Shown here: one piece after another, positions 10,350 through 59,581 of the stretch | How positions within the stretch are numbered: position 1 is the stretch's first letter | Layout: every line of letters begins with the position of its first letter | DNA from: Candidatus Omnitrophota bacterium | Lineage (GTDB): Bacteria; Omnitrophota; Gorgyraeia; Duberdicusellales; 4484-171 | Length of the DNA: 64,000 bases | NCBI GenBank assembly: GCA_023134705.1 | Contig: JAGLUN010000051.1 | Coordinates: 3,362 to 67,361, forward strand | Direction of reading: 5' to 3' | Notes under the pieces: generated by a model | The model's input: the letters and a program-made list of their open reading frames with translations, nothing else | Told to the model about the DNA's origin: nothing | Database searches by the model: none | Program-made: the position numbers and the translations under genes

Positions 10350-10356
10350 TCTGTAA

Positions 10357-18336: not shown

Positions 18337-18340
18337 TATT

Positions 18341-18395
18341 CTTCACGCGATACGCAACATGCGATATGCGATACGCATTTACGCGATACGTTTTC
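18341..18395. repeat. Family-A CGCGATACG array overlapping the last codons of the PEP-CTERM gene
   Basis: It reads CACGCGATACGCAACATGCGATATGCGATACGCATTTACGCGATACG. Confidence 0.7.
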
Positions 18396-19134: not shown

Positions 19135-19192
19135 CTTTCTGTTTCCTTATTTTAGTTTTTCATCTAAAAATATACATTTTTCACCTTTAGGT

Positions 19193-19210
19193 AAGCAAAA
19201 AATGTGCCAA
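19193..19210 (-). promoter_or_regulatory. Sigma-54 promoter (TGGCAC-N5-TTGCT) about 60 bp upstream of the PEP-CTERM start
   Basis: The minus strand reads TTGGCACATTTTTTGCTTAC. Confidence 0.6.
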
Positions 19211-19756: not shown

Positions 19757-19795
19757 ACAAAAAGGCAGGAGCTTTTATGCTTCTGCCTTTTTTAT
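19757..19795 (-). terminator. Intrinsic terminator hairpin (AGGCAGGAGC / GCTTCTGCCT) after the PEP-CTERM gene 19857..20567
   Basis: It is a near-perfect stem with a following T-run. It is homologous to the hairpin at 18297..18336. Confidence 0.55.
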
Positions 19796-19856
19796 CTATT
19801 CTTCACGCATTAAGCGATGACCGAAGGGAATCCTGAGTATCCCCGACGGATACGCG

Positions 19857-20567: not shown

Positions 20568-20624
20568 TCTGATGCCTCCTTTTTTAAATCTTCATCTAAA
20601 AATATACATTTTCCACTTTGTAAC

Positions 20625-20642
20625 AAGCAAAAAATGTGCCAA
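20625..20642 (-). promoter_or_regulatory. Sigma-54 promoter (TGGCAC-N5-TTGCT)
   Basis: The minus strand reads TTGGCACATTTTTTGCTTGTT. The spacing to the ATG is the same as for the promoter at 19193..19210. Confidence 0.6.
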
Positions 20643-20741
20643 ATGAGGATGGATAGACGCAAATTATGAGATACGGTGAGATTGATAGCAATAATATAGT
20701 GGAAATATATAGAAATAGGTTGAAATATAGTTGAAATACAA

Positions 20742-20868
20742 GGTTACTTAAGGTTAGGGAAGGTTACGTAGGAAAGTTACATTGAGAAGGTTGCTTAAAG
20801 AAGGTTACTTCACGTCAACGTAACCTTAAGTAACTTTAAGTAACTTTATGTAACCTTATTTTAATTAA
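20742..20868. repeat. Family-B palindromic element in the opposite orientation
   Basis: It reads AAGGTTACTTAAGGTTAGGGAAGGTTACGTAGG...CACGTCAACGTAACCTTAAGTAACTTTAAGTAACTTTATGTAACC. Confidence 0.75.
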
Positions 20869-20931
20869 CTTCTGCAATCTTTTTTATCTATTTTTCCCGC
20901 GATACACAATACGCGATACGCGTTACGTTTT

Positions 20932-22296: not shown

Positions 22297-22476
22297 AGTT
22301 TACTCCATTTCTTAGTTTATCGAGTTTATCGAGTTCAATTGTCACGAATTCGATAGATTATGAGTAGTTAGTAGTTTGTTTAAAAAAATATGTTATCAGA
22401 CCGCTCACCAAAATATATCCTTCTCCCAAACCAACTACAAACTACAATGCACTTTTAAATTGAACTCGCTAACTTC

Positions 22477-24495
22477 TCACACTTGGGGCAATCTCACTTT
22501 AAACACTGTCCCCTCTCCCTCAACGCTTTCCGCCTCAATCTCCCCTCCATGTGCCTCGATAATAGTCTTGCATTGATAAAGGCCTACACCCATTCCCTTT
22601 TCTTTGGTGGAGCTAAAGGCTTTAAAAAGTTCATTCTCAATGAAATCTTTGGACATGCCGGTGCCGGTATCTTTAAATCGAATCTCGGCGAAGTTCCTCC
22701 CCGATTTACTGTCAATTCCCGGTTGTCCGGTATAAATCCCGGTGGAAATTATAAGATTTCCTTCGCCAGGCATGGCTTCCAGGGCGTTTATTAAAAGATT
22801 AAGAATGACTTTATTCATATAACGGCGGTCAACACATATTTCTATTGATTCCTCCACGTCTATAGTAAGCCGCGTATTCTTAAATCTGTCTTTTCCTAAG
22901 TCCCTTAAGGCTTCATTAATCAAATATGACAATTTATGTTTTTCCTTATTTATTGCTAAGTCTCCGCGCAATGTTTTAAATTCATTAATTAAACGTTTCA
23001 TTTTCCCGATAGCGTTTTCCAGCGTAAAAAAAGCGTCTTCCCGGAATTCAGGATTATTGAATTTATCTTTATTAGAAACAAGGAGTGAAAGGCTGTTAAC
23101 ATAATTCTTAACGTCATGGATAACGAATGAGGATAGTTTATAAATTGATTCTTTTTTCTCGGCTTCCCGTAATTTTTGATAAGCCCAGCAGTTTAAAATA
23201 ACGCTGGACGCCTGCAGTGATAAAACCTTAAGAAGTTCTTTGTCCAAGAAGTTGTTATCATTTAAAGACATCCCGATCAATCCGATAATTTCCTTATCTC
23301 CATATAAAGGCATTGCCGCTTCAATCTTGTTTTCTTTAAAAAAAACTTTTGCTTTGGGAAATTTGTTTTTATCCGGAGAAGAACTGTTAAAAGTTTCGTT
23401 AAAGTTAAAGGCTTCTCCCTGCCTTAGAAGCCGGTCACAAAATCCTTCTTCAAAAGGTGTCTCTTTTTCAAAGACAAAAACCCGGACAGCGGAAACATTC
23501 ATAATTTTTGAAATCGCGTCCTGGATGTTTTTCTTTATTTTTTCGACATCAGTAACGAGAGAAATTTTATAAGTAAAATCTTCCCAGATTTTTTGCCAAT
23601 CATATTTTTGGCGGGTTAAATACCTTAATAGGAATGTTCTTAACCGCTCCCGGAAAGATAATGAGAAGATAAGAAATAGTAAAGCGAAAAATATAAAAAG
23701 CGCGGTTAGAAAAGAAAACAGAACATTCAGATTCCAGCCAAAAGTCTGGAACAGTTTGATGAACGCGCCGATGAAAAATAGATAGCCTCCGACAAGGAAA
23801 AGAGTCAAAGAGGCATGAATTACGGTTTTTTCTTTTACTGCTTCGATAGAAAAACCTTTTTGAGAGGCAAAAAGAAAAATCAATCCGCCGGCAAAGACGC
23901 TTATTGACGAATAAGTTAAAACTCCAATATGTATCTCAAAAAATAATACCGCGTAGGTAGCCAGAACAACATACGGAGTAAGTAAAAATAAAGCGCTTGT
24001 AAAAAGCAATCCCAGCCTCTTTTGTCTTAAAAAGTATAAGCTTCTTTCTATATTGGAAATTGAAAAACTCAAATCAAAAATAAGAAAAATAAAAAAATAT
24101 TGCGCTAATTGAGGGAGTGTCGGGAATAAGTCATTCCCCGGTAAAATTATAAAAGGCTTTATCCACCAGAGCAGGAAAAACATCAAGGAAATAAGTCCTA
24201 AAACCGGGGTTAAAATCAGCCGGTTAAAAACATACCGTTTAGAGGGTAGCAATGATACGCTGAAAATAAGCCAAAATAAGGATATAAGGCAAAATCCCAG
24301 GCCGAATATCTTATCCGCGAAAGGGACCTCAAAAAAGAAGGAAAACTTGGCGATTTCCAAAACTACAAGGCTTAAAATACAAAATGCCGCCAGAAGATTG
24401 GTAATGCTCTTGCGCTTGAAAAGATTAAAGGTAGAAAACCCCAGCATAAAGATATTTACAATCGCAATTATTGATAAAATTGTTTGATCAAACAT
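22477..24495 (-). CDS. prsK: Multi-pass membrane sensor histidine kinase (PrsK-like PEP-CTERM-system kinase)
   Basis: It has about 10 N-terminal transmembrane helices, a GAF-like segment, an H-box VIHDVKN and an HATPase domain (GTGMSKDF, GMGVGL). It is 672 aa. Confidence 0.7.
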   Translation of the reverse strand: MFDQTILSIIAIVNIFMLGFSTFNLFKRKSITNLLAAFCILSLVVLEIAKFSFFFEVPFADKIFGLGFCLISLFWLIFSVSLLPSKRYVFNRLILTPVLGLISLMFFLLWWIKPFIILPGNDLFPTLPQLAQYFFIFLIFDLSFSISNIERSLYFLRQKRLGLLFTSALFLLTPYVVLATYAVLFFEIHIGVLTYSSISVFAGGLIFLFASQKGFSIEAVKEKTVIHASLTLFLVGGYLFFIGAFIKLFQTFGWNLNVLFSFLTALFIFFALLFLIFSLSFRERLRTFLLRYLTRQKYDWQKIWEDFTYKISLVTDVEKIKKNIQDAISKIMNVSAVRVFVFEKETPFEEGFCDRLLRQGEAFNFNETFNSSSPDKNKFPKAKVFFKENKIEAAMPLYGDKEIIGLIGMSLNDNNFLDKELLKVLSLQASSVILNCWAYQKLREAEKKESIYKLSSFVIHDVKNYVNSLSLLVSNKDKFNNPEFREDAFFTLENAIGKMKRLINEFKTLRGDLAINKEKHKLSYLINEALRDLGKDRFKNTRLTIDVEESIEICVDRRYMNKVILNLLINALEAMPGEGNLIISTGIYTGQPGIDSKSGRNFAEIRFKDTGTGMSKDFIENELFKAFSSTKEKGMGVGLYQCKTIIEAHGGEIEAESVEGEGTVFKVRLPQV

Positions 24496-27428: not shown

Positions 27429-28590
27429 TATCAGTTCTTTCTCTCATTAATATTTCTATTATTCTACTAGATGCCTTACCATCTCCATAAGGACTAACCG
27501 CTTTTGACATTTTAAAATATTCAGAGCTATTATGTAATAACAACTCTGTTTCACTAACTATTCTTTCTGAATTTGTTCCTATAAGCTTTGCAACACCCGC
27601 TTCAACCCCTTCTGGACGTTCTGTTTCTGATCTTAAAACTAATACAGGCTTACCTAAAGCAGGCGCTTCTTCTTGTATCCCTCCTGAATCAGTAATAACA
27701 ATATGTGCTTTATTTAAAAGCCTTACCAAATCAAAATACTCCACTGGTGAAAATAAATGTATTCTATCCTTATTTGCCAAAATTTTATCAACAACATTTT
27801 TTACATTAGGATTAAGGTGTACTGGATATATAATCTCTACATCCTCGTTTTTTTTTACAATTTGCATCAAGCCTGCACATATATTTTCTAAAGGCTTACC
27901 AAAATTTTCTCTCCTGTGAGCTGTCACAAGAATTAACTTGTTCCCATTAAGAAACGAAGTGTCTATATTAGATGGATATCCTTCAATATTCTTCAATATC
28001 ATTTGCAATGCATCTACCACACTATTCCCAGTTACAAAAATACTGTCTTTATCAAAATCTTCTTTTAGTAATGCATTCTTTGCACCTTCTGTAGGCGCAA
28101 AATTATATGTTGCTAATTTACCTATAATATTGCGATTAGCTTCTTCTGGAAAAGGATTATAGATATTATTGGTTCTTAACCCTGCCTCTATATGACCAAC
28201 AGGAATCTTTTGATAAAATGCTGCAAGAGCAGCTGTCATAGCAGTTGTAGTATCCCCTTGCACCAGAACTACATGTGGCTTAACCTCCTTAAGAGTAGCG
28301 CTTAGCGCTACCAAAGCTTTAGCTGTAAAAGAATCTAATGTTTGGTTCTTCTCCATTAAGTCAAGATCAATATCAGGTTTTATGTTAAATAATGCTAAGA
28401 ACTGATCCAACATCTCCCGATGTTGCGCTGTAACACACACCATAGAAGTAAATGCATCAGGATGTTTTTCTAGTTCTTTTATAACAGGAGCCATCTTTAT
28501 GGCTTCTGGCCTTGTACCAAACACAAAAAGAACTTTTTTAACCATATCCTTATTTTTTGTATTATTTAAGTTATAAATAGGTTTTAACAT
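27421..28590 (-). CDS. wecB: UDP-N-acetylglucosamine 2-epimerase (non-hydrolysing)
   Basis: It carries VLFVFGTRPEAIKMAPV, HVEAGLRT and DSGGIQEEAPALGKPVLVLR. Confidence 0.85.
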   Translation of the reverse strand: MLKPIYNLNNTKNKDMVKKVLFVFGTRPEAIKMAPVIKELEKHPDAFTSMVCVTAQHREMLDQFLALFNIKPDIDLDLMEKNQTLDSFTAKALVALSATLKEVKPHVVLVQGDTTTAMTAALAAFYQKIPVGHIEAGLRTNNIYNPFPEEANRNIIGKLATYNFAPTEGAKNALLKEDFDKDSIFVTGNSVVDALQMILKNIEGYPSNIDTSFLNGNKLILVTAHRRENFGKPLENICAGLMQIVKKNEDVEIIYPVHLNPNVKNVVDKILANKDRIHLFSPVEYFDLVRLLNKAHIVITDSGGIQEEAPALGKPVLVLRSETERPEGVEAGVAKLIGTNSERIVSETELLLHNSSEYFKMSKAVSPYGDGKASSRIIEILMRERTDNV

Positions 28591-29657
28591 TTTGCCAGAG
28601 ACTCCTTGTTGTTTTCTTTCGCTACGGGCCTAACCGCTGATGAAATGCCAGGGCCAAACTTAGCACAATCTTTAATATTATCCCAATTAGTATCAAACCA
28701 CTGGATCGTTTCCTTTAAGCCATAGTCAAAGTCCTGAATAGGGTCAAATCCGAGTACCTTTCTGGCTTTTTCATTGGAAGCGAGCAATCTTGTTTTTGTA
28801 TCCCATTTCCTCCTAGGCAAATACCTGATCTCCTTATCGCTACCCGCAAACTTATTTACCTTATTAGCGAGATCTATTATCTTTATTTCCTTACCAGCGG
28901 CCAGATTAAACGCCTCGCCTATCGCTTCTTTCATATACCCCATGCGTAAAAGACCATCCACTATATCTCCTACATACGTAAAATCTCTTGTCTCTTCTCC
29001 AGTACCTGTTATAGGTAAAGATTGTCCTTGCATAGCCCAGTATATAAAGTTAGGTATTACATTCCTATATTGGCCCGGTACTTCACCTGCTCCATATGAA
29101 TTAAAAAATCTTGCTTTTGAAATAGGTAACCCCTTCATCTTATAAAAATAATTCATGTATAGCTCGCCAAGCATTTTAGTAATCTGATAAGGAGTGCCCA
29201 TATACATACTTGCGCCTAGATCCTCCTTAAAAGGCATTGGTGCATCACTTGGATAAATAGAGCACCCCGATGATGCATATACTAGTCTCTCGAGTTTTCC
29301 ATACATAACACCATACTGTAGAAGCTTTAGTGTACCCAGGCCATTTATATTAAGATCCTTTTCCGGATAATCAACTGAATTTTGATTTGCAAAAAAAGCA
29401 GCCAGATGAAATATAATCTGCGGCTCTTCATTAAAAACTCTTTTAAGGTCGACCTCATCTACCACATCGCCTTGTACAAAAAGAAGCCCTTGCTCATTCT
29501 GAGGCAGATTCCATGTATAGCCGGAACTTAAATCATCAAGCACGATAACCTGGGCTTTTAACTCCAACAATTTTCTTACAAGAATCGAACCCACAGCACC
29601 TGCTCCTCCTGTAACCAGGACTTTTCTACCTTCGTAATAATTTAGATATTCCTTCAT
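28584..29657 (-). CDS. Extended-SDR NAD-dependent nucleotide-sugar epimerase/dehydratase
   Basis: It carries VLVTGGAGAVGS (GxxGxxG) and YQITK (the YxxxK catalytic pair). It is 357 aa. Confidence 0.7.
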   Translation of the reverse strand: MKEYLNYYEGRKVLVTGGAGAVGSILVRKLLELKAQVIVLDDLSSGYTWNLPQNEQGLLFVQGDVVDEVDLKRVFNEEPQIIFHLAAFFANQNSVDYPEKDLNINGLGTLKLLQYGVMYGKLERLVYASSGCSIYPSDAPMPFKEDLGASMYMGTPYQITKMLGELYMNYFYKMKGLPISKARFFNSYGAGEVPGQYRNVIPNFIYWAMQGQSLPITGTGEETRDFTYVGDIVDGLLRMGYMKEAIGEAFNLAAGKEIKIIDLANKVNKFAGSDKEIRYLPRRKWDTKTRLLASNEKARKVLGFDPIQDFDYGLKETIQWFDTNWDNIKDCAKFGPGISSAVRPVAKENNKESLAKC

Positions 29658-36952: not shown

Positions 36953-37924
36953 TTAACTTCTATTTGTTAAAAAACTCTTAATTCTTTTGAAAATTAAAAT
37001 AATACTAGGACTTAGATAAGTTAAAACCAAATATTTAAGGGTCTTGAGTTTAAACTTAAATTTTAAAGACCGCTTAAACTCTTTTCTGGCTTCGTCGTTT
37101 TTGTTAACACAAAATAACTTATAACCTATAGTAAAATGATTTTTTGCCAGTCTATATGGCAAAAGTTGATTTAACTTTTTCCGCACATCTGGAAATGCAC
37201 AAATTGTCTTCTCAATTGCCTTGTCTACCCAGAAATACGTATTTCTGACATCCCTTGTTATATGACTATTATGCCTGCGCACCTGCACCAGAGGTAAATC
37301 AATGTAACCTGTTATTTTACGCCCCTTGGTCAAACGCAACCACAAGTCATAATCTTCCGACATTGACAAGGACTCATTAAACACGCCTCCTTTTTTAAAG
37401 CTTTCTCGCTTAAGCAAAACCGAAGATGTCCGAATAAAGTTTTCTCTGAATAGAGAAAAAAAGATGTCTCCAGCGAAACATTTTTTAAACTTATTTGTAT
37501 ATCCTGAGTTATTTACATTGGCTTGCAGGTCAAAGGAACTATAATCAGTATGTATTAACTCAAGAGTAGAATTATTTTTAAATAGTTTTATTTGCGTTTC
37601 AATCTTTTTATCGACCCATCTATCGTCAGCATCTAAAAATGCTACGTATTCGCCCTGAGCATATTCAATGCCTTTGTTTCTCGCTGCTGCCGGCCCTCTA
37701 TTCTCCTGATAAATATAGCATATATTCATTGGTGATTTTGTGGCATGTTGACTTTGTGGCCCCATATATTTTTCAACTACTTCTTTTGTACTGTCTGTAG
37801 ATCCATCATCCACAATAATAATTTCGATATCTCGGTATGTTTGAGCCAAAACAGATTCAATTGCTTGCCCGATATACAGCTCACTATTAAACGCAGGTAT
37901 AATTACATTCACTGATCCCATCAT
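36953..37924 (-). CDS. GT2-family glycosyltransferase
   Basis: It carries VNVIIPAFNSELYIGQAIESVLAQTY, IIIVDDGSTD and FLDADD. Confidence 0.75.
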   Translation of the reverse strand: MMGSVNVIIPAFNSELYIGQAIESVLAQTYRDIEIIIVDDGSTDSTKEVVEKYMGPQSQHATKSPMNICYIYQENRGPAAARNKGIEYAQGEYVAFLDADDRWVDKKIETQIKLFKNNSTLELIHTDYSSFDLQANVNNSGYTNKFKKCFAGDIFFSLFRENFIRTSSVLLKRESFKKGGVFNESLSMSEDYDLWLRLTKGRKITGYIDLPLVQVRRHNSHITRDVRNTYFWVDKAIEKTICAFPDVRKKLNQLLPYRLAKNHFTIGYKLFCVNKNDEARKEFKRSLKFKFKLKTLKYLVLTYLSPSIILIFKRIKSFLTNRS

Positions 37925-41911: not shown

Positions 41912-42961
41912 TTAGCCTTTAAATAGCTCAACAAATTTTGAAATCTTTTTTGAAAACATATATACAAAGTTGTAGAAAACCTTCGGAATCTCTAACCTTA
42001 TATAATAGTGCATGTTGCGTTTATTTCCGTCTACGCAAGCCAACCATTCTCTATCATTTATTTTGAGTGCCGACAAATGATGCATGCCATCTTTATTCCA
42101 ACCAGTATTTGAAAATTTTAATATTGGGTATTTATTTATCTCTTTTTCAATATATTTGTTTGTAGTAAGCTCTAGAATCTCAAATCCCCTTAATGAACTA
42201 CCATATCTCGGATAACCATTTTGAGCTACTCGTATCAATTTTCCATTTATATTGAGAATATTACCGCCTGATCTCGTTTTAGAACGGTCATTTTTGATTA
42301 TTGGACTTTTAGGATGTAAAGTCCAAGGACCATCTGGTGTAAGTGCATAATAAAGATTTAATGTCGATGGCGATATGGTTGTAAATAACCACCATTTGTC
42401 ATTATAATAAAAAATTGTTGAATCAACAAAATCGTTTCCTGTAAGAATTTTTTTTACTAGCTTCCATTTATACGGAAAGTTTTCGGATTTATACAACCTA
42501 ATGGATTTGTCCTCTGCGGATTCCGGAATCATATAATATTGATTTTCATACTTGAATACACATGGGTATGAAAGATGGAAAGGCTCTTTTAAAACTACTT
42601 TTTGATACTCCCAGTTAATCCCTTCTATGCTTGTAGCTAATCCAATATTACCTCCCTTGGATGTCAAAGTCTCAAAAAACATGTAGTAGGTTCCTTTTTC
42701 AAAAACTAAAAATGGATCTGCAACAAACTTAGTATTCCTGCAACCTACATTCTTCATTGATAAAACAGGATTTAATATACCGGGATAAGGCGTTAACTGA
42801 AATGAGGAGTTATCCGATAATATTTTATATATACCAATACTCCATTCATCGCCCTCTTTTGCGTTCAAGCTTATAGGTAGAAACTGAGTTTTAGCACCAA
42901 TGCTCACCAAAACAAATACAGCTAAAGAAAATATAAAAATGATTTTTAATGTTTTATTCAT
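41912..42961 (-). CDS. Secreted five-bladed beta-propeller protein of the GH43/GH130-like (glycoside hydrolase or glycan-modifying) fold
   Basis: It has a signal peptide. The motif ADPFLVFEKGTYYMFFE is typical of the first blade of GH43-like propellers. It is 349 aa. Confidence 0.4.
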   Translation of the reverse strand: MNKTLKIIFIFSLAVFVLVSIGAKTQFLPISLNAKEGDEWSIGIYKILSDNSSFQLTPYPGILNPVLSMKNVGCRNTKFVADPFLVFEKGTYYMFFETLTSKGGNIGLATSIEGINWEYQKVVLKEPFHLSYPCVFKYENQYYMIPESAEDKSIRLYKSENFPYKWKLVKKILTGNDFVDSTIFYYNDKWWLFTTISPSTLNLYYALTPDGPWTLHPKSPIIKNDRSKTRSGGNILNINGKLIRVAQNGYPRYGSSLRGFEILELTTNKYIEKEINKYPILKFSNTGWNKDGMHHLSALKINDREWLACVDGNKRNMHYYIRLEIPKVFYNFVYMFSKKISKFVELFKG

Positions 42962-42967: not shown

Positions 42968-43975
42968 TTAAAAATTATTTTGCAAAATAACATCGATTAC
43001 AGAATAAATGTGCTTATAATTCCACTTGTCTTTCTGTAGATGCTCATCAATAAGTTGTTGTCGATATCTTCTAGTAATGGTATTTATCCAAAACATAATC
43101 AACATAGGTCTTATAAATTGGTCAGAAATCATAAGCCTGCCTAAATACTTATCAATTATTTTTTGCTCAAGCATGCTAAATTTAGAGCTTATAGGGCCAT
43201 TGCAAAATACATGCAAGAGCTGTTGCCTTTTCATAATTCCCTTTTTATCTATTAAAAGATAGAATACATCTAAAAGTGGCAATCCCTCCAGTCCCGAGAG
43301 ATCCCAGTCTATAATGCCTTCTATATGCCATGTTTTAGTATTAACGAGTATGTTTTCTACCTTATAATCTCCGTGCATCCATACAGTCTTAAATTTTTTA
43401 TCAATTAATTGTTTTTTAATATTTTGTTTTATCGTTTTAAGTTTTTCTCGATATTCATCATTTAGATACAAATTTAATCTCTCAAAGTCTCTGCCAAATA
43501 ATCGTTTAAAATTGGATTCCGTTATAGTAATATCTTTTGCTGTTTCCTGATGGAATTTGGTTATAAAATCCGCTGCTTTTACTACCAACTCATCCATCTT
43601 TTTGATCGGTAGACCTATGGCAACTCCGGGCAATTTTTCTTCACAATAGTATTTTTTCCCTTGGAATTCGCCTTCTTGTAAAATTCGCGGAGTTAAGTTT
43701 GCTATATTTGTTTTTTGTGTTTTTTTCAACATTATCTTATTTACTCTACATCTTATAGCGCTTAACCTATCCAATGGCATGCGAAGTATGTTTTTTTTAG
43801 TTATAATAATAAGAGTATTTGGCTTCCCAATAAAAATCCTCTTAACATTCTTAAGGCCTAAATCTTTAATAATAGCATTGCCCAAAGAATTATTCTTAAG
43901 TAAAGGATTATTAAAAATACTTGCCTTAATAGATTCTTTAAAAATCAAAATTCTGTCTTTAAACTCACTAAGCAT
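42968..43975 (-). CDS. Protein-kinase-like (aminoglycoside/choline-kinase type) phosphotransferase
   Basis: It carries HGDYKVENILV (the catalytic loop HGDxxxxN) and IIDWDLSG (DxD). Confidence 0.5.
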   Translation of the reverse strand: MLSEFKDRILIFKESIKASIFNNPLLKNNSLGNAIIKDLGLKNVKRIFIGKPNTLIIITKKNILRMPLDRLSAIRCRVNKIMLKKTQKTNIANLTPRILQEGEFQGKKYYCEEKLPGVAIGLPIKKMDELVVKAADFITKFHQETAKDITITESNFKRLFGRDFERLNLYLNDEYREKLKTIKQNIKKQLIDKKFKTVWMHGDYKVENILVNTKTWHIEGIIDWDLSGLEGLPLLDVFYLLIDKKGIMKRQQLLHVFCNGPISSKFSMLEQKIIDKYLGRLMISDQFIRPMLIMFWINTITRRYRQQLIDEHLQKDKWNYKHIYSVIDVILQNNF

Positions 43976-44070: not shown

Positions 44071-44742
44071 TTAACCTTTTGTTTTGATGAACTTATTTGA
44101 GATCTTTATTCCTTTTGTTATTATATGTACAAACGGAGAACTTTTTTTGGTAATATGTTCTGCTAAACTTAAATTTAAAAGAAATTCTTCTTTGCTATTA
44201 AAGGACTGGATTTTTAAAACGGTACTATCTATCTCATCTCTTGTATGAGCATCGCTTCCTGATATCTTTATTTTTTTTTCTTTTTCAGCTAACTTGAGAG
44301 CTCTTTCATTATCTTTTGCATATAAATTCCTTGAATTAAAGACCTCCAGAATATCAACGCTATCTATTATTCTATTTAAGGCATTCTCTCTTAATCTTTC
44401 TTTTCTAAATGAGTCGTATGGATGCGGGATACAAACAATACCATTTTGGCATCTTATTTGTTCTATAGTCTTTTCCGGGCTCATTCCGGAACATATCTCT
44501 TTATCTAAGAATAAGCCCATAACTTCACCTTCAGTAGTATTTATTTCCTCTCCCACTATTATCTGTAATCCTTCTGGTGCTACTTTCTTTAACTCAATAG
44601 CCCCCTTTATAGTATTGTGATCTGTAATTATAATTGAGCTTATGTTCTTATGTATGCAAAATTCTATTACTTCCCTTAAAGAAGTCCTGCAGTCTAAAGA
44701 GAATTCAGTATGGATGTGAAATGCACACTTTATAATGCTCAT
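44071..44742 (-). CDS. PHP-domain metal-dependent phosphoesterase
   Basis: It carries FHIHTEFSLD, IIITDHNT and SGSDAHT, the PHP His/Asp metal ligands. It is 223 aa. Confidence 0.55.
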   Translation of the reverse strand: MSIIKCAFHIHTEFSLDCRTSLREVIEFCIHKNISSIIITDHNTIKGAIELKKVAPEGLQIIVGEEINTTEGEVMGLFLDKEICSGMSPEKTIEQIRCQNGIVCIPHPYDSFRKERLRENALNRIIDSVDILEVFNSRNLYAKDNERALKLAEKEKKIKISGSDAHTRDEIDSTVLKIQSFNSKEEFLLNLSLAEHITKKSSPFVHIITKGIKISNKFIKTKG

Positions 44743-45992
44743 TTTGAACCACCTTTATTGCATACTAAAGGTCTAATAATTTTCTCTATTGTCAAAGATG
44801 CCAAAATAATAATAAAAGGAATTGCCAGCAATCGATACCTGGTAGTAGAATACGTAAGCATAATTACCAGCGAAATAGATATGATCCAAAAATGGAATAG
44901 CCACCACTCGACATTCATATCTTTTATAAGGATTATGATAGCTGGTATCGCTAAAATAATTAAACCAGCATACCAGACAAGCCATACTATTCTAAAAATC
45001 GTTTCAGGGGTTAATTGAGTTAAGTCCATATTATGATAAGGAACTCTCCATAATAAATATAGTTTCTTTAGAGATAATCTTACGGATCTAATAGGATCTT
45101 CTAAGATAAATTCGATCCCTTTCTTATACCCCTCACTACCTGCTCTTAATTCTAAACGCGATAGCTCCTCATCTGTGGCATTTTCTAATGTATCAGGCCA
45201 TATGACACCTGGCGCTAATCTCCAGAGAAAATCACCATTAGCATCAGGGTTATTACCCATGTAAAAATTTATTCCACCATTAGTAGATACAGGGACTATT
45301 TTATGCAATATCGCATAATTCCTTATTATCCATGGCGACATCGTAACCATCATAAAAATAGCAATAACCAAAAACTTCTTTATGGATTTTTTTACTTTTC
45401 CCGGAGAAGGGGAAGATATGAATATCCACACAGAAATAGGGGCAATAAAAAGAAATGCTGTCTCTCGTGTAAGAGCAGAAAGCCCCAACAAAATACCGCT
45501 AATTATTCCATCTTTATTTGCAGAATGTCTCATAAATCTGTAAAGGAATAAAATAGCTGACATAAATAAAAACAAAAATAATGTCTCGCTCCATAATTCT
45601 CCTGGATACCTAATAAACTGAGGATAAAAAGCAAATAAACCAGCAGCTATTAAAGCTGTTAACTTATTAGAAAGTAATTTGGTTAATAAATAGATCACTA
45701 TACAAGTCAATATACTTAATATCGCCTGAATCACTTTCACTGCAAGATAGTTATAGCCGAATAGTTTATAGATGCCTGCTAAAAAATAAGGATATGCAGG
45801 CGGCCTATACGCAAACAGCTGGCCATTACGATAAGAACCTTCTTCTATTATATGTTTGGCTGCTTTATCATAATAATAAGGATCGCTTTTTATCTCTTTA
45901 GGTGAGTAAGCAAATATCCAAAAAAGCCTTAAGAAAAAGGCAAACGTCAAAGCAACAAACAATATTTTCTTAGTTGATATATCCTTAAACAT
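44739..45992 (-). CDS. GT-C fold polyprenyl-phosphate-sugar-dependent glycosyltransferase (ArnT/PMT, GT83/GT39-like)
   Basis: It carries FAYRPPAYPYFLAGIYKLFG in the first periplasmic loop, matching ArnT YRPPLYPxF. It has about 11 transmembrane helices. Confidence 0.6.
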   Translation of the reverse strand: MFKDISTKKILFVALTFAFFLRLFWIFAYSPKEIKSDPYYYDKAAKHIIEEGSYRNGQLFAYRPPAYPYFLAGIYKLFGYNYLAVKVIQAILSILTCIVIYLLTKLLSNKLTALIAAGLFAFYPQFIRYPGELWSETLFLFLFMSAILFLYRFMRHSANKDGIISGILLGLSALTRETAFLFIAPISVWIFISSPSPGKVKKSIKKFLVIAIFMMVTMSPWIIRNYAILHKIVPVSTNGGINFYMGNNPDANGDFLWRLAPGVIWPDTLENATDEELSRLELRAGSEGYKKGIEFILEDPIRSVRLSLKKLYLLWRVPYHNMDLTQLTPETIFRIVWLVWYAGLIILAIPAIIILIKDMNVEWWLFHFWIISISLVIMLTYSTTRYRLLAIPFIIILASLTIEKIIRPLVCNKGGSK

Positions 45993-46004
45993 TCATTTCC
46001 CTTT

Positions 46005-46349
46005 CTATTGCCCCATTGATAACAAACAAATACCGGAAACTACCAAAAGAACTCCCCCAATTTGATGTAACTTTAAAAATTCTCCAATAAAAAAATATGC
46101 CAAAAGTACAACTAATAGATTAGAGCCTCCAATAACAACCGGAAAAGCAACTAATAACTTGACATGTTTCAATACAACCAAATACATGACAGTGCTAATG
46201 ACATAACAAGATAGTCCTATCCATATAAAATAATTCGTCGTTAAGTTTTGTAAGGAAAAAGATCCTGAAGCTTTCTTTAAACATAACTGGCCAGCCGAGG
46301 TTAATATAATTGTTAAAACCATAATAGTATTTATAATCCAATTTGACAT
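46005..46349 (-). CDS. Small 4-TM EamA/SMR-like protein (ArnE/ArnF-type polyprenyl-phospho-sugar flippase subunit)
   Basis: It is 114 aa with four hydrophobic helices. It sits between the ArnT-like and UbiA-like genes. Confidence 0.5.
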   Translation of the reverse strand: MSNWIINTIMVLTIILTSAGQLCLKKASGSFSLQNLTTNYFIWIGLSCYVISTVMYLVVLKHVKLLVAFPVVIGGSNLLVVLLAYFFIGEFLKLHQIGGVLLVVSGICLLSMGQ

Positions 46350-46365
46350 ATTAAATGCTCCTTAA

Positions 46366-47334
46366 TCAATGCATTAAGATGCTAAAAGTTACAAGAAGCC
46401 AAAGCACTATTGGGACAATAAAAGCTTTGTCTTTTAATATAATATCAACCGGTCCTATCCCATTACCTTCCTGCGTCTTAAACATATAACGAAATAAACA
46501 ATATATAACCATAGGCACAGTATACATAAAAGCAGTTGAGTGATGCCTGGCAACGGTTTCAGGATCTACTACAAAAAGGATATAAGACAATATACATATA
46601 GCGTTCATTATAGATAGCGCTGAATTTAGCTTTTCCTTGCTATACACGATCAAAGTAGGCCTGGCATCAGATCTTTTTATTGTCCCATTGCTAAGCCACT
46701 CTAACTCTGCACGTCTTTTTCCAAATGCGAGAAATAAGCTAAGAGAAAAACCACAAACCATAAACCATCTGGACGGTTCAACGCTTATAACATAGCAACC
46801 TGCGATAAATCTGAGCATAAAACCTATAGAAATCGATAACACATCGGCTATTACTTTATGTTTTAAATATGTACTATATATTACATTATTGAATACATAG
46901 GCTAACATGATTAAAAATACTACTTTATCTAGCGTAAATGCTAAACCCAGCCCTGAGCTCAAAAGAATTATCCCTACAAATATAGCTGTAGTTTTAGAAA
47001 TATTACCAGATGCAATAGGCCTTAACTTCTTTTTTGGATGAACTTGGTCTTTTTTTATATCTACGATATCATTAAGTATATAAATACTACTTGAAATAAT
47101 ACTAAAGGCGAAAAAACAATATATAGCCTGTATAACAGAATGAAGATCAAGAAATAATCTAGAAAAAACTAAGGGTGCCAAGACAAATACATTCTTAATC
47201 CAATGATGGATACGTAATTGTTTAGCCCAAATAGCAAGTAAATTATTACTCACTTTTGTAATTCCGGGGATACGATACCCAATTGTTAACCATAAAATTT
47301 TCATGAGATTCTTTTTTGTTTCAATATATTTCAA
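46366..47334 (-). CDS. UbiA-superfamily polyprenyl-phosphate phosphoribosyl (sugar-phosphate) transferase, resembling decaprenyl-phosphate phosphoribosyltransferase
   Basis: It carries ILNDIVDIKKDQVHPKKKLRPIASG, matching the NDxxDxxxD...RPxxxG motif of DPPR synthases. It has about 8 transmembrane helices. Confidence 0.55.
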   Translation of the reverse strand: MKYIETKKNLMKILWLTIGYRIPGITKVSNNLLAIWAKQLRIHHWIKNVFVLAPLVFSRLFLDLHSVIQAIYCFFAFSIISSSIYILNDIVDIKKDQVHPKKKLRPIASGNISKTTAIFVGIILLSSGLGLAFTLDKVVFLIMLAYVFNNVIYSTYLKHKVIADVLSISIGFMLRFIAGCYVISVEPSRWFMVCGFSLSLFLAFGKRRAELEWLSNGTIKRSDARPTLIVYSKEKLNSALSIMNAICILSYILFVVDPETVARHHSTAFMYTVPMVIYCLFRYMFKTQEGNGIGPVDIILKDKAFIVPIVLWLLVTFSILMH

Positions 47335-47347: not shown

Positions 47348-48448
47348 TTATGACTTTGCGCCCTTGCGACTTTCTCTATTGAGTCTTATGTCTTCTGTTT
47401 TCTGTACTTTGTCCTTCACAACCTGCATTCCTTCCTGCAATCGTTGCCCATACATCTTTTTATAGTAATTAAGGTACTCCCCTGACTTAATTTTCATCCA
47501 CCAGCCTTTATTCTGCCTATACCACTCAATTGTTTTTTCTATGCCTTCTTCGAACTTGTATTTAAGCTGCCAGCCTAATTCATTCTTAATTTTAGTTATA
47601 TCCATAGCATACCGTCTATCATGGCCAAGCCTATCTTTTACATAAGTAATTAAGGATTTAGGTTTATTCAAATGTTTTAATATTATTTTTGCTATATTTA
47701 TATTAGTTTCCTCTGAATTTCCTCCGGCATTATAGACTTCTCCTATCCTGCCTTTATGCAAAACAACATCTATTGCCCGGCAAAAATCTTCGGTATAAAT
47801 CCAGTCTCTAACGTTTAAACCGTCTCCGTATAATGGAATGGGTTGATTATCTAAAACATTTGAAATAGTTAAGGGGATATATTTCTCCGGGAATTGATAA
47901 GGCCCGTAGTTATTTGTGCAGCGGACAATTGTTGCCGGAAATTTGAATGTTTCCACATAAGACCGGACTAACAAATCTGAACTTGCTTTTGATGCTGAAT
48001 AAGGACTATTTGGTTGTATTGGCGTTAACTCAGTAAATACCCCTGTCGGACCAAGAGAACCATATACTTCATCAGTCGAAATATGGATAAATTTCTCAAT
48101 ATTGTTTTCTTTTGCCGCTTCTAATAAAACATGAGTGCCAACGATATTTGTTTTTATAAAAGGAATGGAATCTGTAATAGACCGGTCAACGTGTGATTCA
48201 GCGGCAAAATGAACTATAAATGAAATTCCTTCTTCTTTTATTAGATTACTTACCAATTTTCTATCCTCAATCCTTCCCTTAATAAATTTATAATTTGGAT
48301 TACCTTCTATGCTTTTTAAATTTTCTAAGTTACCGGCGTAAGTCAATGCATCTAAATTAATTATCTTATAATCATAATTGTTAAGCATATAATGAATGAA
48401 ATTCGAGCCTATAAATCCACAGCCACCGGTTATTAATATATTTTTCAT
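47348..48448 (-). CDS. rfbB: dTDP-glucose 4,6-dehydratase
   Basis: It carries ILITGGCGFIGSNF and YSASKASSD. It has the full-length RfbB architecture. Confidence 0.85.
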   Translation of the reverse strand: MKNILITGGCGFIGSNFIHYMLNNYDYKIINLDALTYAGNLENLKSIEGNPNYKFIKGRIEDRKLVSNLIKEEGISFIVHFAAESHVDRSITDSIPFIKTNIVGTHVLLEAAKENNIEKFIHISTDEVYGSLGPTGVFTELTPIQPNSPYSASKASSDLLVRSYVETFKFPATIVRCTNNYGPYQFPEKYIPLTISNVLDNQPIPLYGDGLNVRDWIYTEDFCRAIDVVLHKGRIGEVYNAGGNSEETNINIAKIILKHLNKPKSLITYVKDRLGHDRRYAMDITKIKNELGWQLKYKFEEGIEKTIEWYRQNKGWWMKIKSGEYLNYYKKMYGQRLQEGMQVVKDKVQKTEDIRLNRESRKGAKS

Positions 48449-48508: not shown

Positions 48509-48889
48509 TTAAAGAACAAACCTTTTAACTCCACAACTTTTATTGCCGAAATTAACTAATAATCCGACTTTCAAATTAGATGCTCTTAAATAAGAAAGTA
48601 TCTGGTATTTAAAAACATCGGGAATATTGCCTGTTAAGGCTTTAACTTCAACTATAACTTTATCTTCTATGATTAAGTCTAATCTAAGTCTGCCAACATT
48701 CTCTCCTTGATACGAAATCGTAAAACTTTTCTCAGTCTGATACCTTAAGCCTTCCTGTTTTAAAGCTATCTCTAAGGCATTATGGTATATACGCTCATTA
48801 AATCCCGGCCCTAATTCAGAATGAACCCTATAACAACAACCTATTATTTTTTCTGTAAGTGAATCATTATCTTTCATCTGTGTAATCAT
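48509..48889 (-). CDS. GxxExxY-family protein (PD-(D/E)xK-like small selfish/insert gene)
   Basis: It carries LGPGFNERIYHNAL (G..E..Y) and the family end ...GVKRFVL. It is 126 aa. Confidence 0.65.
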   Translation of the reverse strand: MITQMKDNDSLTEKIIGCCYRVHSELGPGFNERIYHNALEIALKQEGLRYQTEKSFTISYQGENVGRLRLDLIIEDKVIVEVKALTGNIPDVFKYQILSYLRASNLKVGLLVNFGNKSCGVKRFVL

Positions 48890-51270: not shown

Positions 51271-51420
51271 TCTCTATTATCGTATATCGTATCGCGTATT
51301 GCGTATCGAGTATCGAATATCTATCATCTACTCTCCATTTTCTGTTCTCGCCCTACATTTCTCGTCCTTCGTCTTTTCGTCTCTCGTCCCTCGTTTCTTA
51401 TCCCCCTTCACTTCCGTCCA
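51271..51420. repeat. Family-A composite repeat
   Basis: It has the CGTATCGCGTATTGCGTATCGAGTATCG array, then the TCGTCC/CTCGTCCCTCGT tract. Confidence 0.8.
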
Positions 51421-52757
51421 ACACTCACATAAGTAAATCCTAATCTTTTCATCCTCTCCGGCTCATAGATGTTCCGGGTGTCAATTAGTACCGGTTTTTT
51501 TAACAATTTTTTTGCTTTTGCTAAGTCGAGATACCGGAATTCGTTCCATTCGGTAAGGATAACCAGAGCGTCGCTGTCTTCCATAACCTCATAGGCGTCA
51601 TTACAATACCTGATATCCTTCAGTACTTTTTTTGCCGCGTTCATTGCCACCGGGTCAAACGCTTTTATTTGAGCGCCGTCTTTTTTTAAACCTTCGATTA
51701 TAGTAATAGCCGCGGATTCCCGAATATCATCAGTGTTAGGTTTAAAGGCTAAGCCTAATATGCCAATGGTTTTATTTTTAAGATTGCCTATTATCTTTTT
51801 GATTTTTTCTATCATCCATTTTTTTTGCCGCTCATTTACCGCTACAGTTGCTTTCACGATTTTTAAGTCATAACCCACGTTTTTGGCAATATCAATTAAA
51901 GCAAGGGTATCTTTTGGGAAGCAGGACCCTCCGTAGCCGGGGCTGGCATGAAGGAATTTAAAGCCGATTCTTCTATCGAGCCCGATGCCTTTAGCAATCA
52001 TGTTTACGTCAGCTCCTACCTTTTCGCAGATATTAGCCATTTCATTGATGAATGAAATTTTTGTCGCCAGAAACGCGTTTGCCGCGTATTTAATCATCTC
52101 GGATGTTTCGAGTGTGGTGAATACCATGGGGGTTTCGAATAAATAAAACGGCCGGTAGATATCTTTCATAATCGCTCTTGCCTGATCACTTTCCGTGCCT
52201 ACGACAATCCTATTCGGACGCATAAAGTCTTCGATTGCCGAACCTTCCCTCAGGAATTCAGGATTTGATACCAGGTCAAAATCCGGCATCCGGGGATCAA
52301 TATCCGGATTCTTAGCTAATCGTTCCGGAGAAAATTTTTCATCTAATGTTTTCTGAATCATTACGCGGACATTGGCGCAGGTTCCCATTGGAACAGTGCT
52401 TTTCATCACAATAACTTTATACTCATCCATATGTTCAGCTATTGCTACGGCAACCGCGTTTATGTTTGATATGTCAGGCGCGCCATCACCGCTATTAGGT
52501 GTATTTACCGCGATATAAAGAGCTAAAGACGATTGGATGCTTTCTTCTAAATTTGTAGTAAAGCTTAGCCGTTTTTCTTTTAGATTCCTATGGACTAATT
52601 CCTCTAACCCCAGTTCATAAATGGGAATAATGCCTTTTCGCAGTTTCTTGATTTTTTCCTCATCTTTATCCACGCATATTACCGTATGCCCGAAATCCGC
52701 CAGACAGGTTCCTGTTACTAAGCCCACATAGCCGGCACCAAAAATTGAGATATTCAT
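51408..52757 (-). CDS. ugd: UDP-glucose 6-dehydrogenase
   Basis: It has the N-terminal NAD-binding motif FGAGYVGLVTG and the catalytic segment GGSCFPKD. It is 449 aa. Confidence 0.85.
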   Translation of the reverse strand: MNISIFGAGYVGLVTGTCLADFGHTVICVDKDEEKIKKLRKGIIPIYELGLEELVHRNLKEKRLSFTTNLEESIQSSLALYIAVNTPNSGDGAPDISNINAVAVAIAEHMDEYKVIVMKSTVPMGTCANVRVMIQKTLDEKFSPERLAKNPDIDPRMPDFDLVSNPEFLREGSAIEDFMRPNRIVVGTESDQARAIMKDIYRPFYLFETPMVFTTLETSEMIKYAANAFLATKISFINEMANICEKVGADVNMIAKGIGLDRRIGFKFLHASPGYGGSCFPKDTLALIDIAKNVGYDLKIVKATVAVNERQKKWMIEKIKKIIGNLKNKTIGILGLAFKPNTDDIRESAAITIIEGLKKDGAQIKAFDPVAMNAAKKVLKDIRYCNDAYEVMEDSDALVILTEWNEFRYLDLAKAKKLLKKPVLIDTRNIYEPERMKRLGFTYVSVGRK

Positions 52758-52760
52758 GTT

Positions 52761-53720
52761 TTAAACCGCCTCCTTCTTTCCAAGCGAAATTTTTTTTGAA
52801 AAATATTCTATTGTTCTTTTTAAACCCTCATCGATATCAATCCGGGGTTTCCATTTTAAAATTTTAGTTGCTTTTGTGATATCGGGTTTTCTTCTTTTGG
52901 GATCGTCTTGGGGCAATTTAAAAAATGTTATTTTTGACGATAAGCCGGTTATTTCCATTACTTTTTTCGCGAGCTCAAGCATCGTATATTCACTTGGATT
53001 CCCTAAATTAATAGGTAACAAATATTTAATGTCCATGAGTTTTAAAATTCCTTCAATTAAATCATCCACGAAACAAAAGGATCTGGTTTGCGTACCCTTT
53101 CCATATATTGTTAATGCCTTCCCTTTCAAAACCTGCACAATAAAATTAGAAACGACTCTTCCATCATCAAGCTGCATATTCGGCCCATAGGTATTGAAAA
53201 TACGGACAATTCGAATTTCAATATTATGTTGACGGTGATAGGCGTAGGTTAATGCTTCAGCCCCTCTTTTGCTTTCATCATAACAACTACGCTCACCAAT
53301 CGTATTGACATTACCCCAATATTCTTCAGGCTGCGGATGAATTAGCGGGTCTCCATACACTTCAGAAGTCGATGCGAGAAAAAACTTTGCCTTCTTGAGC
53401 TTTGCTAATCCTAAACAATTATGTGTACCTAAAAGCCCGGATTTTAAGGTCTTAATCGGATGCGCGAGATAATCGTTAGGGGAAGCAATCGCGGCAAAAT
53501 GTAAAACCCAGTCAATATCTTCTTCTATTACAAACGGCTTTGATATATCATGCTCAATAAGTGTGAAGTTGTTGTTCCCTATCAATCCCCGCACATTTTC
53601 CTTGGATCCGGTGATAAAATTATCTATACATACTACCCGATCCCCTCGATCGAGAAACTTCTTGCATAAATGGGATCCAATAAAACCCGCGCCGCCGGTA
53701 ATTAAGATTTTCATTTTCAA
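52761..53720 (-). CDS. UDP-glucuronate decarboxylase (UDP-xylose synthase)
   Basis: It carries ILITGGAGFIGSHL and YDESKRGAE, and closely resembles UXS-type SDRs. It is 319 aa. Confidence 0.75.
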   Translation of the reverse strand: MKMKILITGGAGFIGSHLCKKFLDRGDRVVCIDNFITGSKENVRGLIGNNNFTLIEHDISKPFVIEEDIDWVLHFAAIASPNDYLAHPIKTLKSGLLGTHNCLGLAKLKKAKFFLASTSEVYGDPLIHPQPEEYWGNVNTIGERSCYDESKRGAEALTYAYHRQHNIEIRIVRIFNTYGPNMQLDDGRVVSNFIVQVLKGKALTIYGKGTQTRSFCFVDDLIEGILKLMDIKYLLPINLGNPSEYTMLELAKKVMEITGLSSKITFFKLPQDDPKRRKPDITKATKILKWKPRIDIDEGLKRTIEYFSKKISLGKKEAV

Positions 53721-58603: not shown

Positions 58604-59581
58604 CTACCCTTTCACCAGTTGGCTTTTAAAATATTCGACTGTTCTCCTAAGGCCTTGTTCAAAATCAACTATGGGTTTGAAGCCAAGCATTGACTTGATT
58701 TTAGAAACATCGGCTAAGGTTTTGAATACGTCTCCTTTGCGTACAGGTAAAAATTCCGGTTGGATATTTTTGCCGATGATTTTATTGAGTGAGTCAACTA
58801 TGCTTAATACAGTGTTGTCTTTTCCGTTGGCAACGTTAAGAATCGTATTGCGTATCGCGTATTGCGTATCGCGTAAAGGGACGGTGGCGGCAAGGATGTT
58901 GGCTTCAACTACGTTATCAATATAAGTAAAATCACGGGATTGTTTGCCATTACCAAAAATCGGCGGTTGTTCATTATTAAGAATGCAATGGATAAATTTA
59001 GGGATAACTACAGCGTATTCGTCGTCTAATGCCTGCCTTGGGCCGAACACGTTAAAGTAACGCAGGCTTACTGTTTCCAGGCCGAAGTTCTCGCTGAAAA
59101 TCCGGCAGTAATATTCACCGGCTAATTTAGTCAAAGCGTAAGGAGAAATAAGTAACGGATAGGCGGTTTCCTTCTCAGGGAATTTGTCGGTATCTCCATA
59201 AACAGAACTTGATGACGCAAAGACCAAACGTTTCGTCCCGCACTCTCCACCGGCTTTAAGCATATTTAAAGTGCCATTAATATTTACCTCGTTATATTCA
59301 TAAGGGTTATTCATTGATTTAGGTACACTGCGTAAGGCGGCCTGGTGGAATATAATTTCGATACCTTTACAGGCTCTTAGACAAGTATCATAGTCACAGA
59401 TATCGCCTCTGATTAGTCGATAGTCGATGGCCGATTGTCCATAGCTGGATACAAAAGAGAGGTTCTCTTCTTTTCCGGAAGAGAAGTTATCAAGTACAAC
59501 CACGTCATTTCCTTCCTTCAGTAATCGTTCAACAATATGTGAACCGATAAATCCTGCTCCGCCGGTTACCAATGCTTTCAT
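58604..59581 (-). CDS. NAD-dependent UDP-sugar 4-epimerase (GalE/WbpP-like extended SDR)
   Basis: It carries ALVTGGAGFIGSH and YALTKLAGE and is 325 aa. The codons 58849..58880 are a family-A repeat unit (see findings). Confidence 0.75.
   Translation of the reverse strand: MKALVTGGAGFIGSHIVERLLKEGNDVVVLDNFSSGKEENLSFVSSYGQSAIDYRLIRGDICDYDTCLRACKGIEIIFHQAALRSVPKSMNNPYEYNEVNINGTLNMLKAGGECGTKRLVFASSSSVYGDTDKFPEKETAYPLLISPYALTKLAGEYYCRIFSENFGLETVSLRYFNVFGPRQALDDEYAVVIPKFIHCILNNEQPPIFGNGKQSRDFTYIDNVVEANILAATVPLRDTQYAIRNTILNVANGKDNTVLSIVDSLNKIIGKNIQPEFLPVRKGDVFKTLADVSKIKSMLGFKPIVDFEQGLRRTVEYFKSQLVKG

Follow-up and report, generated by a model that had tools for sequence, protein, structure and literature searches.

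A four-gene cassette in an Omnitrophota exopolysaccharide locus resembles three-component pentofuranose systems and carries a PHP-fold candidate phosphatase

In a 64-kb stretch of DNA from an uncultivated Omnitrophota bacterium (the window), four genes tightly packed on the minus strand at 44071-47334 lie within a polysaccharide locus. In the order of their transcription, they encode the following proteins:

46366..47334, minus strand: predicted polyprenyl-phosphate phosphoribosyltransferase (PPPRS) of the UbiA fold, 322 aa, matched by NCBIfam NF008977 and PDB 8j8j
46005..46349, minus strand: small SMR/DMT-like protein with four transmembrane segments (4-TM protein), candidate flippase, 114 aa, ArnE/ArnF/EmrE-like
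44739..45992, minus strand: minimal GT-C-fold glycosyltransferase of the PMT_2 type, 417 aa, matched by Pfam PMT_2 and supported by an AlphaFold model
44071..44742, minus strand: soluble PHP phosphoesterase, candidate 5-phosphatase for the phosphoribose phosphatase (PRP) step, 223 aa, matched by Pfam PHP and PHP_C

All four open reading frames (ORFs) were found on the minus strand, at the coordinates given in an earlier reading of the sequence (the original prediction). They belong to a single long minus-strand gene run that occupies 38-53 kb of the window and is transcribed in the order rmlA, rmlC, rmlD, a PDDEXK_3 gene, rmlB, UbiA, the 4-TM gene, the GT-C gene and PHP. The gaps are 13 nt between rmlB and UbiA, 16 nt between UbiA and the 4-TM gene and 12 nt between the 4-TM and GT-C genes; the start of PHP overlaps the stop of the GT-C gene by 4 nt, and 95 nt separate PHP from the kinase-like gene that follows. 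The PPPRS, candidate flippase and GT-C genes are thus contiguous, and clustered in a glycan locus as in the three-component pentofuranose systems described below. We propose, with a probability of roughly 0.68, that the four genes form a portable module of this kind, which would add a sugar side chain outside the cytoplasm.

The UbiA ORF begins with a TTG codon and encodes 322 aa, and the database copy begins 10 codons later at an ATG (47304), giving 312 aa. Comparison with the NCBIfam models showed that the protein matched NF008977 (decaprenyl-phosphate phosphoribosyltransferase, DPPRS) with 259.6 bits (E=3.9e-77), above the equivalog cutoff of 234, whereas the best non-DPPRS prenyltransferase model (UbiA, MenA, CyoE, ChlG and similar) reached 52 bits. 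In addition, the cryo-EM structure of Mycobacterium tuberculosis Rv3806c (PDB 8j8j) aligned to the protein over its full length (E=5e-32). The NDxxDxxxD...RPxxxG signature that had been read in this frame is real and corresponds to N88-D89-xx-D92-xxx-D96 followed by R105-P106-xxx-G110. In Rv3806c, Mg2+ is bound by N73 and D77, pyrophosphate by R22, K87, R90, Y138 and K143, ribose by Q135, and the 5'-phosphate by K28, Y70 and Y157 (Gao et al., PMC10994848). When this list was combined with the other two Asp residues in the D-rich motif, 11 of the 13 residues that contact phosphoribosyl pyrophosphate (PRPP), Mg or the lipid phosphate were identical in the UbiA protein, in which R41, K47, Y85, N88, D92, K102, R105, Y153 and K158 stand for Rv3806c R22, K28, Y70, N73, D77, K87, R90, Y138 and K143, respectively. 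The two exceptions were Q135, replaced by N150, and Y157, replaced by F172; the Y157 to F change has been noted in some mycobacteria (PMC10994848). The phosphoribose ligands of Rv3806c are not common to true prenyltransferases (PMC10994848), and because the UbiA protein keeps them, it does not group with the menaquinone or chlorophyll enzymes and falls in the phosphoribosyltransferase clade, as the original prediction had anticipated. By every sequence test available, this protein is strongly predicted to be a PRPP-dependent polyprenyl-phosphate phosphoribosyltransferase.

The best named matches of the 4-TM protein in NCBIfam were ArnE (E=4.5e-9, 36.5 bits, far below the curated cutoff of 92) and ArnF (E=1.6e-4, also far below its curated cutoff), and Pfam gave weak matches to EamA and SMR. 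It contains four or five hydrophobic segments, and its hydropathy fits four transmembrane segments. These matches are consistent, at the level of the family, with the ArnE/F-like label that the protein had been given. Homologues adjoin UbiA in five other loci (L001, L090, L096, L132 and L143), and by analogy the protein is a candidate polyprenyl-phosphate-pentose flippase.

The GT-C protein matched Pfam PMT_2 (2.1e-22), and no relative in the PDB could be detected by sequence at E<=1. Its AlphaFold model was of high confidence (predicted local distance difference test, pLDDT, 92.8; predicted TM-score, pTM, 0.91), and the top PDB matches retrieved with this model by Foldseek were all GT-C enzymes (probability 1.00, TM-score TMq up to 0.61). 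The fold neighbours included STT3, AglB, PglB, ArnT, Pmt, EmbA/B/C, AftB/D and ALG9/12, at 10-16% identity. The TMq of ArnT to the model was only 0.41-0.42, and no ArnT model was present among the NCBIfam matches at E<=0.01. The earlier description of this protein as ArnT-like is therefore valid at the level of the GT-C fold and the PMT_2 superfamily but not as a statement of ArnT orthology, and the modelled structure is that of a minimal GT-C_A enzyme. The YRPPxYPxF-type loop on which that description relied does exist, as A61-Y-R-P-P-A-Y-P-Y-F70. Across 20 homologues, A-Y-R-P-P-x-Y-P and the TNGGINFYMGNNP segment were conserved, and D37, P64, P65 and R176 were invariant. D37 is located in the first periplasmic loop, after TM1, and is a candidate for the catalytic Asp. 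A compact GT-C family of ~400-430 aa with the motif GG[IVF]NFY[MIL]GN was widespread in metagenome-assembled genomes (MAGs) of the FCB group and Planctomycetota (L009-L088), usually without a link to UbiA.

The PHP protein matched both Pfam PHP (2e-11) and PHP_C, and it is soluble, since no transmembrane segment was found. Its metal ligands H9, H11, D41, H42, E66, H107, D164 and H166 are all intact and invariant, and D17 is invariant too. A sequence search of the PDB gave weak matches alone; the structural model (pLDDT 96.9) had PHP structures as its top fold matches, and the nearest solved structures were TM0559, RNase AM and Cv1693, a 3',5'-adenosine-bisphosphate (pAp) phosphatase. Those structural neighbours that have been characterised, pAp phosphatase and RNase AM, break phosphate ester bonds at ribofuranose rings. 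No HAD domain was present in the UbiA protein or its neighbours in the window; a PHP-fold phosphoesterase is found there instead.

Analysis of other genomes showed that homologues of UbiA (58-64% identity), GT-C (45-48%) and PHP (50-52%) lie side by side in three other metagenomic loci (L001, L089 and L090), and that the GT-C stop and the PHP start overlap in all four cassettes. The 4-TM gene is carried by L001 and L090, at 35-36% identity to that of the window. The PHPs of the four cassettes formed a clade of their own in a neighbour-joining tree, which was not bootstrapped. The polysaccharide surroundings of the cassettes differ, as expected for a portable decoration cassette: L089 has Wzx/Wzy and Poly_export genes, and L090 an ABC transporter with Wzt_C. 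Two arrangements reach beyond the shared ancestry of the four cassettes. In L172, a UbiA only 33% identical to that of the window is accompanied by a B12-radical SAM (S-adenosylmethionine) gene, a PHP of 46% identity and an unrelated 549-aa multi-TM protein with a GT-C-like 'DDPY...G.G' first loop. In L096, the order GT-C(PMT_2) - SMR-like - UbiA (52% identical) - HAD phosphatase represents the same four functions, with a HAD where the window has a PHP. In a further locus, L155, UbiA, Bac_transf, GT4 and PHP genes occur together. The original prediction had assigned to the PHP protein the role of the phosphatase of the known pathway, and this proposal gained support from the UbiA-GT-C-PHP synteny in three other loci, the UbiA-PHP link in L172 and the replacement of PHP by HAD in L096. 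On the basis of this gene linkage and of the HAD-for-PHP swap in the sister module, the PHP protein is a candidate polyprenyl-phosphate-ribose-5-phosphate 5-phosphatase.

Two of the cassettes also contain a gene of their own: a class-I SAM methyltransferase of 225 aa is inserted between the 4-TM and GT-C genes in L001 (9264-9941) and L090 (652-1329), with 63% identity between the two, and may hint at a methylated pentose.

The wider sample comprised 85 PPPRS loci, 80 of them metagenomic and 5 others, of which 47 extended at least 1.5 kb beyond UbiA on its downstream side; the neighbours were grouped by clustering of all ORFs. In 7 loci the gene directly 3' of UbiA was a separate HAD, possible HAD fusions were seen in two loci whose UbiA ORFs are long (445 and 527 aa), and SMR-like genes were found in 11 loci. 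Related arrangements also occur in cultivated or plasmid-borne contexts, such as DPPRS - HAD-IB phosphatase - GtrA in the EPS (exopolysaccharide) locus of Lactococcus cremoris pF27D, and DPPRS - FAD (flavin adenine dinucleotide) oxidoreductase of the DprE1-like kind - SDR (short-chain dehydrogenase/reductase) on a Chondrinema plasmid, where they are flanked by GT39/PMT_2 proteins. A DUF362 protein of ~364 aa was encoded directly 3' of UbiA in 15 of the 47 loci (L101-L104, L110, L117, L122, L129, L132, L134, L143, L158, L160, L166 and L168), never together with a HAD gene and often followed by an SMR-like gene; it is possibly one more exchangeable partner in this pathway. In L004 (L004/L005, 8001-12827), UbiA overlaps a gene of the alkaline phosphatase superfamily ('Phosphodiest'), which is followed by sulfatase and sulfotransferase genes. 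B12-binding radical SAM genes are located near UbiA both in L004 and in L172 (2923-4317), and the partners found in these two loci hint at further modified lipid-linked pentoses.

Three-component extracytoplasmic pentofuranose systems have been established in Citrobacter youngae O1/O2 (ORF15-ORF14-ORF12; Kelly et al. 2024, PNAS, PMC11127046). They consist of a PPPRS with a fused HAD phosphoribose phosphatase (ORF15), a small flippase and a GT-C that founded family GT136, with epimerases as optional members (PMC11127046). ORF14 was modelled in the supporting information (SI) as an antiparallel EmrE/ArnEF-like dimer, and ORF12 was described as EpsG-like with a carbohydrate-binding module (CBM) (PMC11127046). 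According to the same work, M. tuberculosis (with a PAP2 enzyme) and P. aeruginosa have separate phosphatases 'belonging to different structural families', and the published bioinformatic marker for the three-component systems is the HAD PRP domain (PMC11127046). PHP is absent from the text and SI of that paper, and our literature searches found no described PHP partner of a PPPRS.

The window shares with C. youngae a UbiA-fold, PRPP-using PPPRS, a predicted dephosphorylation step, an EmrE/ArnEF-like candidate flippase, a GT-C, a polysaccharide locus and the optional nature of an epimerase. It differs from it in three respects. The candidate phosphatase is a separate PHP-fold enzyme, whereas in C. 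youngae a HAD (PRP) domain at the N terminus has this role. The GT-C is a PMT_2-type protein of 417 aa, much smaller than ORF12 and without a C-terminal CBM; to judge from its match to Pfam PMT_2 and from the EpsG-like, CBM-bearing nature ascribed to ORF12, it probably lies outside CAZy GT136. Finally, the host is an uncultivated Omnitrophota with a predicted EPS of a PEP-CTERM-type locus, and the glycan of C. youngae is an O antigen.

With the mycobacterial decaprenyl-phosphoryl-arabinose (DPA) pathway (Rv3806c, Rv3807c, DprE1/DprE2, Rv3789 and Emb/Aft), the window has in common the homologous first enzyme with its conserved PRPP ligands and, as proposed, a lipid-P-Rib-5-P that would be made, dephosphorylated, flipped and used by a GT-C. 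Unlike that pathway, the window has no PAP2 phosphatase, no DprE1/E2 and no homologue of the GtrA-family Rv3789, its GT-C is 10-16% identical to the Emb/Aft structures, its lipid is probably undecaprenyl and not decaprenyl phosphate, and the module would decorate a glycan and not polymerise an arabinan. The likeness to the Arn modification of lipid A lies in the ArnE and ArnF matches of the 4-TM protein and in the GT-C_A fold and PMT_2 Pfam that the GT-C shares with ArnT-like proteins, but the donor synthase in the window is predicted to be a PRPP-dependent UbiA enzyme and not a GT2. The sister modules of L096 and L. cremoris pF27D have the same type of synthase together with a phosphatase, which is of the HAD fold there and of the PHP fold in the window. 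All in all, a lipid-linked pentose donor pathway in an EPS locus, as put forward in the original prediction, is supported, but its logic is not new, being that of the three-component pentofuranose system (PMC11127046). The module is a variant of this known pathway with a different phosphatase fold, a different and smaller GT-C family, and another phylum and glycan context.

The pathway that we propose would proceed in four steps. On the cytoplasmic face, the UbiA enzyme would move ribose-5-phosphate from PRPP onto polyprenyl phosphate, probably undecaprenyl phosphate, and yield polyprenyl-P-beta-D-Ribf-5-P, a step strongly supported by homology. The soluble PHP protein would then strip the 5-phosphate, as gene linkage and the HAD-for-PHP swap suggest. 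By analogy and co-occurrence, the ArnE/EmrE-like 4-TM protein, presumably as a homodimer, would flip polyprenyl-P-Ribf to the periplasmic face. There, the GT-C, whose fold is taken from the model, would pass the pentofuranose to a periplasmic acceptor.

No epimerase gene was found in any of the four cassettes, and the sole SDR beside UbiA is a genuine RmlB, which belongs to an rmlACDB set and is therefore context rather than a lipid-pentose epimerase like ORF13. In addition, the 64-kb window contains no DprE1-like FAD gene and no DprE1/E2. Because no epimerase is encoded with the module, the transferred sugar is most likely ribofuranose; of the 'ribofuranose- or arabinofuranose-type' sugar proposed earlier, the first is thus favoured, and arabinofuranose becomes less likely in the absence of DprE1/E2 from the window.

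The most likely acceptor would be the Wzx/Wzy-made exopolysaccharide of a PEP-CTERM/XrtA-type locus. Besides the rml genes, the locus carries Wzx, a Wzy_C protein and several GT4/GT2 enzymes. On the minus strand at 16720-24495 lie three PEP-CTERM proteins (16720-17745, 18379-19134 and 19857-20567), adjoined by a sigma-54 response regulator (20932-22296) and a GAF histidine kinase (22477-24495), an arrangement typical of exosortase-type EPS regulation. The region is regarded as a PEP-CTERM/exosortase-type EPS region because of the Wzy_C protein, the GT4/GT2 enzymes, the three PEP-CTERM proteins, the sigma-54 regulator and the histidine kinase.

Several observations weigh against this proposal. 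The four cassettes share ~60% UbiA identity, so that part of their synteny may reflect common descent, and L089 has no 4-TM gene. The distance of the 4-TM protein from the ArnE cutoff counts on the same side. A scan of GTDB genomes with the GT-C, in which the species of the window itself was not recovered, yielded 80 relatives of 24-38% identity in MAGs that include Zixibacteria, Ignavibacteria, Krumholzibacteria and Planctomycetota, and none of the relatives had a UbiA within 10 kb; the coupling to UbiA is therefore limited to a close GT-C subclade and is not family-wide. Even a closer GT-C relative (L091, 45% identity) sits among housekeeping genes, with no UbiA or PHP nearby. Likewise, UbiA is lacking beside the database sequences most similar to the PHP protein (41-48% identity, Dehalococcoidia; P0246, P0270 and P0294). 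The PHPs of Dehalococcoidia occur in a conserved housekeeping context, EF-P - PHP - Formyl_trans_N - HAD - PfkB (L006, L007 and L008, at ~position 7000), and in L173 the PHP adjoins an HD-domain protein with no UbiA nearby; consequently, the PHP family is not dedicated to a lipid-pentose pathway and would have a housekeeping role besides. The PHP relative P0242 has no UbiA link either.

These last findings bear on an alternative that we consider unlikely, namely that the PHP protein is a phosphoesterase for nucleotides, RNA or phosphotyrosine, for instance a pAp phosphatase, a CpsB-like EPS regulator or an enzyme like RNase AM, and that an unlinked enzyme removes the 5-phosphate. The housekeeping operons of its closest sequence relatives and the presence of RNase AM and pAp phosphatase among its structural neighbours speak for such a role, and PHP-type tyrosine phosphatases (CpsB/YwqE) occur in capsule loci. 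However, neither NCBIfam nor Pfam gave a match to CpsB/YwqE, none was present in the top 50 fold matches from the PDB, and the module contains no other phosphatase. The overlap of PHP with the GT-C gene in every cassette, the separate clade of the cassette PHPs, the recurrence of PHP with a very divergent UbiA in L172 and the HAD in the equivalent role in L096 also argue against this alternative.

We give a smaller chance to the possibility that the module works as proposed and its final sugar is an epimer, D-arabinofuranose or xylofuranose, with an epimerase encoded elsewhere in the genome converting the lipid-linked ribose before flipping. Kelly et al. (PMC11127046) showed epimerases (the SDR ORF13 and DprE1/E2) to be optional and the GT-C to be capable of promiscuity, and 12 of the 85 PPPRS loci have SDR genes beside UbiA. 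Moreover, SDRs of unassigned function are present in the window at 28584-29657 and 58604-59581, and the view is of 64 kb of the genome. Against an epimer, and in favour of ribofuranose, stand the lack of any FAD/DprE1-like gene in the window and of an epimerase gene in the four cassettes, and the identity of the SDR adjoining UbiA, a bona fide RmlB by its score (486 bits against a cutoff of 365).

It is very improbable that the GT-C and the 4-TM protein draw on another lipid-linked donor, for example a hexose or an aminopentose of the Arn type, and that they adjoin UbiA by coincidence. A UDP-glucose dehydrogenase and a UXS/ArnA-like SDR at 51408-53720, and the broader GT-C family without UbiA, would be in keeping with this idea. 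Nevertheless, no ArnC or ArnB gene was found in the window, nor any ArnT, ArnA or ArnB equivalog match above cutoff. The only GT2 in the window (36953-37924) was considered as a donor synthase of the GtrB/ArnC type and rejected, as it has no transmembrane segments, which leaves the window without a GtrB/ArnC-type enzyme that could supply a lipid-monophosphate sugar instead. Across loci, the genes keep their order and overlaps together with UbiA, and PPPRS has companions of the PMT_2 GT-C type in L096, L004 and Chondrinema as well. Finally, that UbiA is an ordinary aromatic or quinone/haem/chlorophyll prenyltransferase, as its Pfam UbiA membership and the JGI auto-annotation of many homologues as '4-hydroxybenzoate polyprenyltransferase' might suggest, is hardly credible in view of the 259.6 bits on the DPPRS equivalog against at most 52 bits for the prenyltransferase models and of the retained phosphoribose and 5'-phosphate ligands, which set Rv3806c apart from prenyltransferases.

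A bolder form of the proposal, on which we are evenly divided, is that the PHP protein represents a third non-homologous 5-phosphatase, beside the PAP2 enzyme Rv3807c and the HAD PRP, and that the 417-aa PMT_2-type GT-C represents a new pentofuranosyltransferase family in uncultivated Omnitrophota; its furthest extension would have a PEP-CTERM protein as acceptor, that is, protein ribofuranosylation. To our knowledge, no PHP-fold enzyme acting on a polyprenyl-linked sugar phosphate has been known before, and this one would be the first. If the proposed module operates as described, the pentofuranose side-chain pathway would extend to candidate-phylum bacteria and to PEP-CTERM/exosortase-type EPS loci. 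It would also mean that unrelated enzymes (PAP2, HAD and now PHP) replace one another at the phosphoribose phosphatase step through non-orthologous displacement, and that genome mining with the HAD PRP domain as marker would miss the PHP-type class. A compact four-gene cassette with a very small GT-C could, in that case, be used in glycoengineering trials for ribofuranose side chains. The pathway logic being already known, there would be no conceptual surprise.

The module is bordered on both sides by other genes of the minus-strand run. Those downstream of PHP are, in order, an APH-type kinase-like gene, a GINT1_N/GH43-like propeller, a GT4, a Wzx-like flippase and an FkbM methyltransferase. 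The closest neighbours are as follows:

47348..48448, minus strand: RmlB, dTDP-glucose 4,6-dehydratase, immediately upstream of UbiA, TIGR01181 (486 bits, cutoff 365)
48509-48889, minus strand: PDDEXK_3 protein of the PD-(D/E)XK nuclease superfamily (E=4e-37)
42968..43975, minus strand: APH-family kinase-like protein, 335 aa, soluble, Pfam APH 1.5e-14
41912-42961, minus strand: GINT1_N/GH43-like beta-propeller with an N-terminal membrane anchor, Pfam GINT1_N E=2e-56

The kinase-like protein that the original prediction had placed after PHP is present, but it is not a conserved part of the module. Neither it nor the GINT1_N/GH43-like gene has a counterpart in cassettes L001, L089 and L090, and both were rejected as members on this ground; the kinase-like gene is probably a locus-specific accessory. 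The PDDEXK_3 gene sits between rmlD and rmlB and splits an otherwise contiguous dTDP-rhamnose set.

Other features were observed farther away in the window. On the plus strand at 152-4300, the gene of an ACP (acyl carrier protein)-acyltransferase fusion (152-1156) is close to those of two paralogous FeeM-like N-acyl amino acid synthases (1568-2410 and 3488-4300), which suggests N-acyl amino acid or lipid synthesis beside the PEP-CTERM locus. Also on the plus strand, at 8107-13829, a radical SAM protein, an ABC ATPase, a MacB/FtsX permease, a LolA-like protein and a DUF1302 outer-membrane protein are encoded in one run that has the look of an export set for lipoproteins or lipids. An AbiEii toxin gene is located at 6847-7623 on the minus strand.

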